NCBI GenBank assembly: GCA_048940645.1
Contig: JBHLOI010000029.1
Location: forward strand, 1 to 42,872
Length of the DNA: 42,872 bases
Source: Promethearchaeota archaeon
Lineage (GTDB): Archaea > Asgardarchaeota > Lokiarchaeia > Sigyniarchaeales > SOKP01
Direction of reading: 5' to 3'
The notes under the pieces were generated by a model that saw only the letters and a list, made by a program, of their open reading frames with translations, did not search any database and was not told where the DNA came from. Of the stretch, positions 8,539 through 30,769 are shown piece after piece (positions within the stretch are counted from its first letter, which is position 1; each line of letters opens with the position of its first letter). The translations under genes and the position numbers were made by a program.

Positions 8539-9189
8539 ATCCCAAAAAAAGAAAAATTAGAAGAAATTACATCAAAAGATTTCCAAAACTTGGTAAATCA
8601 ATTGAATAAGATAGAAAATCAAATAAATATATTAAAAGCTATGCCAAAATCAATCCAGAATTTAACCAATAGGATTGAAAAAATTGAAAATAAACTTAAT
8701 CCTATGAAAACATTGCCCAAAGATGTTCAGGTTTTAATAGAAAAAACCAATAAATTGGATAGTGATATTAATACTATTAATAGAGAAATCTCTTTTAATA
8801 GAGAGCAAATTGAGGAAAAAATCAAAATACAAGAAGAAATCATAATGGATATGATTAAGAAATTTAATGATGAATTTCTTAAGCATAAGTCTGAAGTTTC
8901 AGAGGAAATGGAGACTATAAAAACTCAACAAGATGTATTAAAGATATCCTATGCTGTAAATGAAAACAAGCTCATTAGTAAAATTAAGTCATTAATTACA
9001 GCTGAATTAAAGAATAGAATTCAAGGGCAAGAAAGCGAAATTTTAATGAAGATGTGGATAGATGAATTTAAAGAGATTGCTAATAATTTTGAAAAACTAA
9101 AAAAACTTAAACCAAAAGAATTTAATTTAAGATTGAATGAAATTTTGAATACAATAGAACAATTTAAAGAAAAAATTCATACTTTTTAA
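8539..9189 (+). CDS. Coiled-coil protein
   Basis: Heptad-rich ORF. Track start is TTG 8590, but the frame is open to ATC 8539, 6 nt after GGTGA (MPKKEKLEEITSKDF...). The start is inferred. Confidence 0.65.
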   Translation: MPKKEKLEEITSKDFQNLVNQLNKIENQINILKAMPKSIQNLTNRIEKIENKLNPMKTLPKDVQVLIEKTNKLDSDINTINREISFNREQIEEKIKIQEEIIMDMIKKFNDEFLKHKSEVSEEMETIKTQQDVLKISYAVNENKLISKIKSLITAELKNRIQGQESEILMKMWIDEFKEIANNFEKLKKLKPKEFNLRLNEILNTIEQFKEKIHTF

Positions 9190-27270: not shown

Positions 27271-28137
27271 CTATTTTTTTATAAGAGACTTTAATGTGGA
27301 TAAATTCATAACATCCTCTTTCAGATCTTTGCCTTTTGGTGTTTCTAATATCCCAGGATGTTCCTTAAACTTCTCATCATTGACAAAAAATCCAAATGCT
27401 TCTTTTCCTATTTTTCCTTGCCCTATATGCGTATGACGATCAACTCGAGATCCTAAACCTTTTTCAGAATCGTTTAAGTGAAATGCAAAAAGATAATCTA
27501 ATCCTACCATGTCATCAAATTCATTCCACATTTCATTATATTTCTTTTCGGTTGTAAAATCATACCCAGAAGAAAAAGAATGACATGTGTCAAAACATAC
27601 TCCAATTCGGTTTTTATTGTTAATCTTATCAATAATAAGCTTTAAATGATGAAATTTACGCCCTAAATTATGACCCTGTCCTGCAACGGTCTCTAATAAT
27701 ATTTTGACGTTAGATTTCTCAGTATCTTGCATTAATTTATTTAATTGTTCAGCAATACGAGTTAATCCAGTCTTTTTGCTTTCATTTTCATCTTCAAAAT
27801 TATAAGTACCTGGGTGAATTACTACATAATCTAATTTAAGTTGTTCAGCTTTAACTAATTCATCTAGCATAGCAGTATAAGATTTAGTAAGTTTTTCTTG
27901 ATCTGAAGTAGCCAAATTGATTAAATAGCTATTATGAGAGAGAAGTGGCCAAATCTGTTCTTGAAATTTCGCTTTCGTTTCTAAAAATTCATTAATTTCT
28001 TCTTGATCTAATGGTTTTGATGACCATCCTCGAACATTTCTTATAAAAACTTGAATTGCTTCACAACTAAGCTCTTTTCCTCTTTCAAGAGCCATGTGTT
28101 TTCCACCACTTACACTCATATGAGCTCCTAATCTCAA
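27271..28137 (-). CDS. nfo: Endonuclease IV (AP endonuclease)
   Basis: LGAHMS, HNSYLINL, HPG, LLETVAGQG, CFDTCH, HLNDS, DRH and ILETP. TTG 28137 after AAGGTGT preferred over GTG 28146. Confidence 0.95.
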   Translation of the reverse strand: MRLGAHMSVSGGKHMALERGKELSCEAIQVFIRNVRGWSSKPLDQEEINEFLETKAKFQEQIWPLLSHNSYLINLATSDQEKLTKSYTAMLDELVKAEQLKLDYVVIHPGTYNFEDENESKKTGLTRIAEQLNKLMQDTEKSNVKILLETVAGQGHNLGRKFHHLKLIIDKINNKNRIGVCFDTCHSFSSGYDFTTEKKYNEMWNEFDDMVGLDYLFAFHLNDSEKGLGSRVDRHTHIGQGKIGKEAFGFFVNDEKFKEHPGILETPKGKDLKEDVMNLSTLKSLIKK

Positions 28138-28211
28138 TAAATACACCTTAAGTAAATTAGTTTAAAAATTCTTTAAATAAAATAAGAAATAAAATATTTT
28201 AATTATTCGGT

Positions 28212-29384
28212 TTAATCCGTTATTTCATAATCTATTTTATCAAGAATTTCAATTATATCAATTATTTCAAAATTCATATTATATTTTTGATTGGCATCAG
28301 ATAAATTAGTTCTGCAGAATGGACAAACCGAGGTAACTTCACTTGCCCCAGTATTTTTTGCCTCCTCTAAACGTTCTCCTGAAATTTCAACGGCCCAATC
28401 TGGATATCCAATCTTAACTCCACCACCAGCTCCACAGCACCAAGCATTTTCCCTATTACGTTTCATTTCTACTAATTGAACTCCAGGAATTTGTTTAAGA
28501 ACCTCTCGTGGGATATCATAGACCCCCATATGTCTTCCTAAATGACAAGGATCATGATATGTTACCTTTTTGTTATATTCTGATTTAAATTTAATTTTAT
28601 TTTCATCTAAAAGTTTTTTTACTAATTCTATTGTATGGTATATCTCGATACCTAAATCTACCTCAAATTTAGACCAATCTTTCTTTAAAGTTCTATAACA
28701 GCCAGCACATGACGTAATAACTTTCGTTGCTCCTTTTTTTTTTATTTGAGTAAGATTATAATTCATAAAATCTTTTACTGGCTTGGTTTGTCCAGTCCTT
28801 ATAATTGGACTGCAACAACAATGCTCATCTATCAATGTAAAGTCTACTTTTGCTTTCTTAAGAAAATTCAAAGTAGCATCTCTTAGATTTTTCTGACGAT
28901 AATTAGAAGTGCATCCAATGAAGTAAATCCATTCTGCCTTATCTGGTAAATTATACTTATTCTTCAATTCTTCATTATCGGAATTAGTTTCTCCATAAGG
29001 ATTAAACATCTCTGCATTTTCAGTACGTTCCAAAAGAACTGTTTGTTTTTCTAGACAAAAACCATTTTTTACAGCTTCAGCACGAGCAGCTTCAATAAAA
29101 TCAACAAGAAAATCATTAAATTTATCAAATACACAATTTTCTGTGCAATTTCCGCACGTAGGACATGCATATAATACGTTTGCTACACCTGAGTTCCATT
29201 GAATCTCTCCACTTATTAAACCATAAATTAACCATAATCTTCCACCAGTACTATAAGTTTCAAATTTATACTTTTTATAACTAGGACAGTTAAAATCAGC
29301 ATAATCATGAGTGAATTTACAATAACCACATCGAAAACATCGATGAATAATATCTTTCCAATCTTGTTCAGAATTAATAGTTAT
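28212..29384 (-). CDS. Fe-S oxidoreductase (GlcF/HdrD-like): N-terminal 4Fe-4S dicluster plus two CCG domains
   Basis: The track ORF (from 29033) has GCT...HCCC...[22 protein letters not shown] and CPFC. The in-frame upstream 117 codons add CFRCGYC...CP and [11 protein letters not shown]. The only plausible start is ATA 29384 after GGAGGTGA. Confidence 0.88.
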
Positions 29385-29386
29385 TT

Positions 29387-30769
29387 TTACTTCACCTCCC
29401 AGTTTCCTGGATTCATTATTCCATTTGGATCAATAGTGTTTCTAATATTGTCAAATAACTTTTTGTAGTTAGGGTCCATCTTTTCAAGAATTAATTGTTG
29501 TCCTGATAATTCTGCTTTCCATGGAATGCCCCCTAATTCCAAAGCTAATTTATTGGTTTCATGTAAAGCATTTCTGGCATTTTCCTTATCTTTAGGATCA
29601 CTCCGATTAAATGAATATGAAAAGAACATAACAATATTATGAGTTCCTCTAATCAACCGTGATCCTAGTGTTGGTACGATTCCATATTTTTTTGAGATTT
29701 CAGCACCTCTTCTATAAGCTTCGGGAATATTTTCAAGAGGCATATTAGCTCCAACATATTCAAAACCGCCACCTTTTCGATAATCTGCAGCAGTTGCTGC
29801 GGTAATAATAGGTTTTTTTAAATAATTTTGTCTCAATCTTTCTGGTGGTTTCATATACCTTGCTTTTGCTTTACGAAATATTCGTTTAAATGTTTTTGTA
29901 TGAGAATCTATTTCTTCTTGTGTTTCACCAGTAACATACGTTATAAGTATAATATATCCCTTCACCCAGTCGGGTTTATCTTGCATTCCAAGTATAACAT
30001 CCTCAGCTAAACCAGTTTCAGTTAGCTTTAGGAGAGCATTAGGAATATCTTTCGGATCATTTAATAATCCAAATACCACTTCTCGAAACTTAGGTTTATC
30101 AAATAATTGAATTGAAAGCTTAGTGACAATTCCCATAGTACCAAATGAACTAATAAATAATCCAATAAGATCTGGGATGGGACCTCTAGCAAACCAATAT
30201 TTAGACACTGCACAAGAGCCCATTTTACATACATCCCCCTTTGGAAGAACTACTTCTAACCCATTTATCATAGAACCATGATCACCATATTTTTGAGATA
30301 AATAACCTGAACCATAAATCAAAACATTACCAGCAACAGTTGCGGAAGGAGGAGCATCCGGTATTGGAGGCTGCAAATTTGGATAATTTTCATTTAAAAA
30401 TGAAAGAAGTTGTCCTGTAGTGACTCCTGCTTCTATAAGAGCATATTTACTAAGTACATTTATTTCAATAATTTTATTCATTCGTTTCATATCCATAACA
30501 ATGCCACCTTTTACAGGAATTATTAATCCGCTTAATGTTAACCCCCCACCCATAGGAACAATTGGAATTTTCTCTTGATTAGCTAATTTTACAATCTTTT
30601 GTATTTCTTCTACATTTTCTGGCATTACTACAAAATCAACTTGACGAGGTAATGAAGCTCCTGGATCTTGAGAGTAAATGTATAAATCTTCTTCTCTACT
30701 TGATACAAAATCCTTTCCAACAATATTCTCTAATTCTTTAAGTACCTTATTTTCATACAATGAAATCAA
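29387..30769 (-). CDS. FAD-binding oxidoreductase (GlcD/D-lactate dehydrogenase-like)
   Basis: [37 protein letters not shown] and C-terminal DPNGIMNPG. The real start may be TTG 30760. Confidence 0.9.
29392..29399 (-). promoter_or_regulatory. Strong Shine-Dalgarno GGAGGTGA in the last codons of the upstream gene, 7 nt before ATA 29384
   Basis: The minus strand reads tgGGAGGTGAagtaaaaATAact. Confidence 0.75.

Follow-up and report, generated by a model that had tools for sequence, protein, structure and literature searches.

The Promethearchaeota archaeon assembly GCA_048940645.1 (Lokiarchaeia, order Sigyniarchaeales) carries, on contig JBHLOI010000029.1, a gene pair encoding a GlcD-like oxidase linked to flavin adenine dinucleotide (FAD) and an HdrD/GlcF-like iron-sulphur (Fe-S) subunit, and the question addressed here is at which codon translation of the second gene begins. 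The contig was analysed over positions 1 to 42,872, a stretch referred to below as the window (contig C42 in our numbering), and it belongs to a 3.83-Mb metagenome-assembled genome (MAG) of 126 contigs (completeness 89.6%, estimated contamination 3.7%) with a guanine-plus-cytosine content of about 30%. Lengths are given in nucleotides (nt) and amino acids (aa), and the features that enter the argument are as follows.

28212-29384, minus strand: HdrD/GlcF-like Fe-S subunit gene, 390 codons from ATA to 28215, with its stop at 28212-28214 (translation, Pfam)
29387-30769, minus strand: upstream GlcD-like FAD-linked oxidase gene, 460 aa, first of the pair (Pfam FAD_binding_4 and FAD-oxidase_C)
29387-29389, minus strand: TAA stop of the GlcD-like gene, 2 nt before ATA (sequence)
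29382-29384, minus strand: proposed ATA (AUA) start codon, aligned with the orthologue starts
29392-29399, minus strand: Shine-Dalgarno site GGAGGTGA, within the last codons (W-E-V) of the upstream gene and kept in nearly all orthologues
29133-29348, minus strand: two-cluster ferredoxin domain, residues 13-84 (Pfam Fer4_8)
29031-29033, minus strand: internal TTG picked by gene callers, giving a 273-aa product with the CCG domains only (list of open reading frames)
29400-29402, minus strand: in-frame CTG, six codons upstream of ATA and upstream of the Shine-Dalgarno site; TTG in many orthologues
29376-29378, minus strand: in-frame ATT, two codons downstream of ATA
29430-29432, minus strand: in-frame TGA that closes the Fe-S frame upstream

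The Fe-S protein read from ATA has a Fer4_8 match at residues 13-84 (36.6 bits against a Pfam cut-off of 27), and its cysteines, C16-x2-C19-x2-C22...C33-P and C74-x2-C77-x2-C80-x3-C84, all fall within the 117-codon N-terminal stretch. An earlier, preliminary description, made from the DNA letters, had placed two ferredoxin motifs in the 117 codons upstream of the TTG start and had recognised in them the N-terminal dicluster domain of GlcF/HdrD-type proteins; the translation and the Fer4_8 match bear out both statements, as do the best 120 database homologues, all of which carry PF13183 together with PF02754 and measure 377-404 aa. The CCG domains (PF02754, 115 bits) occupy two C-terminal stretches and match HdrB chains in the PDB, and the closest proteins all come from Promethearchaeota (Asgard, Loki-type) MAGs.

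The gene shares with the HdrD/GlcF/GlpC/TfrB family its domain order (2x[4Fe-4S] ferredoxin plus two CCG domains) and its pairing with an FAD dehydrogenase gene, the GlcD-like gene lying directly upstream in an arrangement that is kept at the orthologous loci. It differs in scoring below the curated cut-off of every named NCBIfam equivalog (TfrB 222.7 against 385; GlcF 66.9 against 333; GlpC 95 against 278), the level for LdhH likewise not being reached, and the upstream oxidase gives 135 bits with NCBIfam glcD, also below the cut-off. As no equivalog score reaches its cut-off, the pair is assigned no substrate or electron acceptor; our best guess is that it forms an FAD-dependent dehydrogenase complex for 2-hydroxyacids of the D-lactate or glycolate type, with electrons leaving through the HdrD-like subunit.

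The start region and its orthologues

The GlcD-like gene ends in AAC TGG GAG GTG AAG TAA, while the Fe-S frame, from the TGA at 29432-29430 onwards, reads TCC AAA TGG AAT AAT GAA TCC AGG AAA CTG GGA GGT GAA GTA AAA ATA ACT ATT AAT. Between this TGA and TTG 29033, which lies 117 codons after ATA, the frame contains no ATG, GTG or TTG, as the preliminary description had read it. That description had also noted a strong Shine-Dalgarno sequence 7 nt before an ATA at 29384 that stands 2 nt past the upstream stop, and all of these coordinates agree with ours: the spacer between GGAGGTGA and ATA covers 29385-29391, and its 7 nt fall inside both the genome's canonical peak (4-7 nt) and the genome-wide peak spacing (5-7 nt). 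The further claim that the Fe-S domain can be reached only from ATA stands as far as canonical starts are concerned; two near-cognate codons that the description did not mention, CTG 29402-29400 and ATT 29378-29376, are also in frame nearby. No Shine-Dalgarno site precedes TTG 29033, yet exactly the 273-aa product of this codon is on database record, from six contigs, and the organism's own full-length 390-aa protein is absent among the near-length database matches. As callers are limited to ATG, GTG and TTG, the database copy is a 273-aa fragment without both [4Fe-4S] clusters.

Orthologue start codons, whose comparison had been put forward as a check, were read at 35 distinct orthologous loci anchored at the conserved D-W-K codons. 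The codon aligned with ATA is ATG in 18, TTG in 5, ATT in 7 and ATA in 5, that is, canonical ATG or TTG in 23 of the 35 and ATT or ATA in the other 12. Three of the ATG orthologues (L005, L017 and L034) have the identical GGAGGTGA with the same 7-nt spacing, and in six (L006, L008, L010, L012, L014 and L029) a stop codon immediately precedes the ATG, which fixes the N-terminus of the protein at the aligned position. An in-frame TTG six codons upstream is present in many ATT and ATA orthologues, and annotators start the protein there (396-aa entries); this TTG is a by-product of the Asn-Trp codons of the upstream gene (AAT TGG) and lies 5' of the Shine-Dalgarno site. It is lost where Asn is encoded by AAC (our gene and that of the sister species G013, giving CTG), where the frame is another (L009) and where a stop intervenes (L030, TAA ATA ATT), so that our gene, L009 (ATT) and L030 have no canonical start that would retain the first cysteine motif. 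On a maximum-likelihood tree of the orthologues, the near-cognate state needs at least six changes, at least three of which are forced by well-supported branches, and it persists in clades of two to four species in which ATA and ATT interchange.

The sequence of the junction is reproduced elsewhere. A stretch of 121 nt that includes both ATA and CTG is 100% identical in GCA_048938985.1, GCA_048938325.1 and GCA_048941225.1, and the sister species G013, at 90% protein identity, likewise has CTG...GGAGGTGA...ATA; judging from these assemblies, the ATA is not a read error. By its pattern of codon substitution, the N-terminal domain is under purifying selection: in comparisons with seven orthologues, the ratio of nonsynonymous to synonymous substitution rates (dN/dS) comes to 0.04-0.19 for the 110 N-terminal codons and to a comparable 0.07-0.15 for the rest of the gene, at a synonymous divergence (dS) of 0.28 to about 3. 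Both a misread ATG and a fresh pseudogene, the two outcomes that the preliminary description had seen as fatal to its reading, are contradicted, the former by the three identical assemblies and the ATA of G013 and the latter by the dN/dS values.

With a probability that we put at roughly 0.75, translation of the Fe-S gene initiates at AUA 29384, giving the full 390-aa two-cluster protein, as had been proposed. This start is the best supported because ATA occupies the position of the orthologues' ATG or TTG with the same spacing, the sequence is reproduced, the N-terminal domain is under purifying selection, and near-cognate codons in excess follow Shine-Dalgarno sites throughout the genome.

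Probable near-cognate starts in the genome and the genus

The genome-wide census covered 2974 stop-to-stop open reading frames (ORFs) of at least 150 codons and considered every codon that precedes the first in-frame ATG, GTG or TTG by 10 codons or more and is itself followed by at least 100 codons. ATA, ATT, ATC, CTG and ACG were counted as near-cognates, and a Shine-Dalgarno 5-mer in the register of GGAGGTGAT had to stand at 5-7 nt. Such a site precedes 49 of 1501 near-cognates and 44 of 8936 other codons (odds ratio 6.8, p = 3e-18). For ATA alone, the figures are 13/506 against 42/8681 codons that are neither near-cognate nor AAG or AGG (odds ratio 5.4, p = 6e-6), and they become 8/506 against 10/8681 of the same codons when a match of at least 6 nt is required (odds ratio 13.9). 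AAG and AGG show no Shine-Dalgarno enrichment in the census, and the spacing profile of the near-cognates peaks at 6 nt, like that of first canonical starts. The Fe-S gene stands at the top of the 62 census candidates, combining an 8-nt Shine-Dalgarno match, which only one other candidate has, with a 117-codon extension; the sites C24:2821, C24:10898, C36:4282 and C10:14324 are also in the census.

Pfam domains confirm, at the level of the predicted proteins, that near-cognate extensions are coding. Of 20 candidates scanned, all with an extension of 30 codons or more, 15 have a domain that reaches into the extension, and five, matching ATP_bind_1 (GPN-loop GTPase), GCHY-1, Ras, Gtr1_RagA and ATP-grasp_2 (SucC-like), have a Pfam model that begins no more than 6 residues from the near-cognate codon. 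A nitroreductase candidate has a 97-codon extension, and the start of its whole domain (residues 20-189) lies well within it. After background correction, Shine-Dalgarno-led starts number about 33 near-cognate against about 145 canonical, or about 19%, which is an upper bound since only the first canonical codon per ORF was counted. The preliminary description had called the Fe-S gene the strongest single case for non-canonical initiation in the window; the ATA case itself holds, but its scope was understated, as it is one instance of a habit of the genome and the genus. Termination-reinitiation was considered as a general cause and rejected genome-wide, the stop of an upstream long ORF lying within 40 nt of 24% of near-cognate and 40% of canonical Shine-Dalgarno-led starts, although it may still contribute at the Fe-S gene.

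Several further observations concern individual genes. Elsewhere in the genome, four Fe-S genes need a near-cognate start to include their first cluster motif, namely two HdrD-like paralogues (ATT), an hdrA-like gene (ACG) and a small ferredoxin (ACG):

C6:9588, plus strand; C10:15596, minus strand; C10:14324, minus strand; C20:11171, minus strand: the four Fe-S genes with a near-cognate start

Within the window are two more candidates: an ATC at 8539 (plus strand) follows GGTGAT at 6 nt and lies 17 codons before the first canonical start, and an ACG at 2325 (minus strand) follows AAGGTGG at 6 nt and lies 11 codons before it. Downstream of the Fe-S gene (minus strand, 28136-28146) begins a xylose-isomerase-like TIM-barrel gene that is listed from GTG 28146, itself within AAGGTG; its start is probably TTG 28136, AAGGTG resembling the Shine-Dalgarno site of that TTG.

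In the same genus, near-cognate codons occupy the start of conserved genes. A SucC-like protein (ATP-grasp_2 and Ligase_CoA; C11:13156, minus strand; L241-L261) has ATA in 13 orthologues, ATT in 5, and CTG, GTA and ATG in 1 each; a TTG that follows the ATA or ATT two codons later makes some of these orthologues individually ambiguous. For the GPN-loop GTPase (ATP_bind_1; C120:731, plus strand; L262-L290), the aligned codon is ATT in 17, ATA in 2, ATG in 5, TTG in 1 and TTT in 4, where TTT is the aligned codon only and not an assigned start. The gene of the initiation factor aIF1 (SUI1; C43:36271, minus strand; L088-L105) has no ATG, GTG or TTG before the zinc knuckle in 18 of 18 same-genus genomes examined, and in 3 of them no canonical start before codon 100; its start region reads TGA AAA AAG AGT ATT AAA GA... 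in all 18, with the conserved ATT behind AAAGGTTGTGA. Elsewhere in the order, aIF1 begins with TTG, GTG or ATG in most other genera and with ATA in genus g5. aIF1 destabilises non-AUG initiation complexes (PMC6237735), and a conserved AUU on its own gene suggests a feedback loop on stringency that may resemble the one of infC.

Samples of other genomes comprised 400-800 kb each (800 kb for G038 and G032) and are too small to bound the trait. Near-cognates with a Shine-Dalgarno site are in excess in G038, from another genus of the same order (5/205 against 5/1402 other codons, p = 0.005), and in G018, from the same genus (5/145 against 7/757, p = 0.03), and are not significantly so in the samples of G032, from another genus of the order (2/208 against 22/1385), and G008, from the same genus (2/196 against 13/1155). 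The trait may be patchy across Promethearchaeia. A broader proposal, to which we give even odds, is that a whole Asgard (Promethearchaeia) genus has relaxed stringency, such that about 10-20% of its Shine-Dalgarno-led genes, including sucC, the GPN-loop GTPase, gatB and hdr paralogues, would start at AUU, AUA, AUC, ACG or CUG, with the AUU of aIF1 acting as an infC-like loop that sets the stringency.

Competing explanations and the proposed initiation at AUA

If ATA were an ATG misread in sequencing or assembly, or a fresh start lesion in a decaying gene, only the 273-aa CCG fragment, or nothing, would be made, and this fragment is indeed the output of the gene callers for a MAG with 3.7% estimated contamination. 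The identical junction in three further assemblies, the ATA of G013 together with ATT or ATA in ten more orthologues, the N-terminal dN/dS of 0.04-0.19 over dS up to about 3, the want of a Shine-Dalgarno site at TTG 29033 and dozens of other genes with the same pattern speak against such an error or lesion, which we hold to be very improbable. No start codon at all would be needed if a -1 frameshift of the ribosome, or some other recoding ahead of the TAA, joined the two genes into one GlcD-HdrD fusion. Before ATA the downstream frame stays open for 15 codons and overlaps, in the -1 frame, with the last part of the upstream gene, and fused FAD-oxidase/Fe-S proteins occur elsewhere (YdiJ-type proteins, and a 914-aa open frame in G031). 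However, orthologues differ in how the two genes are framed relative to each other, with the same frame split by TAA in L006, L008, L010, L012, L014 and L029 and another offset in L009 and L021, and frameshift fusion was rejected on this ground; moreover, most orthologues have their own ATG or TTG, no slippery site of the X XXY YYZ type is present at the junction, and the element conserved there is a Shine-Dalgarno site at start-codon spacing, which together leave fusion extremely unlikely. An alternative genetic code was likewise set aside as unneeded: near the junction TGA, TAA and TAG all act as stops, and table 11 gives ORFs of normal length.

Initiation at another in-frame near-cognate, either CTG 29402, which would yield a 396-aa protein with an extra LGGEVK, or ATT 29378, is a further rival reading, and we consider it unlikely. 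Both codons keep the Fe-S domain, and CTG, which is among the near-cognates enriched genome-wide, is homologous to the TTG at which annotators call the 396-aa database orthologues. Still, CTG and its TTG counterparts lie upstream of the Shine-Dalgarno site, with only a weak AGGA ahead of them, and arise as a by-product of the upstream Asn-Trp codons; the TTG is absent from other-frame loci (L006, L008, L009 and others) and from those where a stop intervenes (L015, L017 and L030), so the conserved Fe-S protein does not include the LGGE extension. ATT 29378 stands 13 nt from the Shine-Dalgarno site, whereas canonical starts use 4-10 nt.

Besides these in-frame rivals, other points weigh against AUA as the start. 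AUA is a poor initiator in studied bacteria, and expression of the Fe-S gene could be low for this reason. In the sister locus L003, just 4 residues separate an ATG from the first cysteine, and that species may not need the first ~11 residues. The census was built on a simple stop-to-stop ORF model of our own and not on curated genes. Finally, no recognisable initiator tRNA was found among the 30 tRNAs of the 89.6%-complete MAG (aragorn with and without introns, the Rfam tRNA model and pattern searches), and its 16S rRNA was not found either, so that the codon-anticodon pairing and a canonical anti-Shine-Dalgarno pairing are assumed and not read.

The same tRNA searches gave a picture of their own. 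Many tRNAs of the genome have introns; among the aragorn calls are a tRNA-SeC (tca) and, labelled Pyl, a tRNA that carries an intron and the anticodon cta (C101:14410-14497 and C58:1587-1687), and of three unparsed Rfam tRNA matches, the one at C101:16733-16884 appears to bear a TAT anticodon.

For initiation at AUA, we propose the following course. The Fe-S gene would be the second cistron of a two-gene operon, after the GlcD-like FAD dehydrogenase gene, and its 8-nt GGAGGUGA would position the 30S pre-initiation complex by base-pairing to the 16S rRNA 3' end. This would place AUA, 7 nt downstream, in the P site, where the initiator Met-tRNA would be accepted despite the third-position mismatch; with AUA decoded by the initiator tRNA, the N-terminal residue would be Met, and the product would be the 390-aa protein with two [4Fe-4S] clusters. 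Start-codon stringency would be relaxed in the lineage, which fits the finding that aIF1, a fidelity factor, itself lies behind a conserved AUU. With an upstream stop at a distance of 2 nt, initiation may be aided by coupling to terminating ribosomes, although coupling is unneeded genome-wide. Translational coupling by termination-reinitiation is described in archaea (PMC6728339, PMC10666635), and the Fe-S gene shares with such cases a stop 2 nt before the start, a Shine-Dalgarno site inside the upstream gene and a product likely to be a subunit of the same complex; the near-cognate starts of the source genome differ in having no general requirement for coupling.

Known parallels and meaning for Asgard archaea

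NCBI table 11 permits some rare non-canonical bacterial starts, among them the AUU of Escherichia coli infC, which encodes initiation factor IF3. In both systems, a gene led by a Shine-Dalgarno site has no usable start other than a near-cognate AUN, and the aIF1 gene of the same genus, behind its conserved AUU, echoes infC autoregulation. They differ in extent, a handful of genes in E. coli compared with roughly a tenth to a fifth of Shine-Dalgarno-led starts in the Asgard genome, and in the codons concerned, the Asgard set including AUA, AUC, ACG and CUG and forming the majority state for some housekeeping genes across the genus; furthermore, the archaeon uses aIF1, aIF1A and aIF2 and not IF3.

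In eukaryotes, initiation at near-cognate codons (CUG, ACG, AUU, AUA and others) is controlled by eIF1 and eIF5. The codon set is shared, with CUG, ACG and AUN enriched and AAG and AGG not, and aIF1 is the homologue of eIF1. In contrast to scanning and Kozak context, the Asgard site is set by Shine-Dalgarno pairing at 5-7 nt, and the Asgard codons are the sole starts of main ORFs rather than mainly those of upstream ORFs or N-terminal extensions. A literature search of limited coverage returned nothing specific on non-canonical starts in Asgard archaea or Lokiarchaeota.

By the genomic evidence assembled here, near-cognate starts seem to be frequent in this Asgard lineage, stable over evolution and correctly spaced from Shine-Dalgarno sites. 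Eukaryotes have no closer known relatives than Asgard archaea, with which they have in common start-selection machinery of the eIF1/eIF1A/eIF2 type, and a lineage with lowered stringency could reveal how start-codon fidelity is set and evolves. Standard gene callers, which allow only ATG, GTG and TTG, cut short the proteins that begin at near-cognate codons and so distort metabolic reconstructions of Asgard archaea; if relaxation does extend through the genus, current annotations would systematically shorten or miss N-termini.

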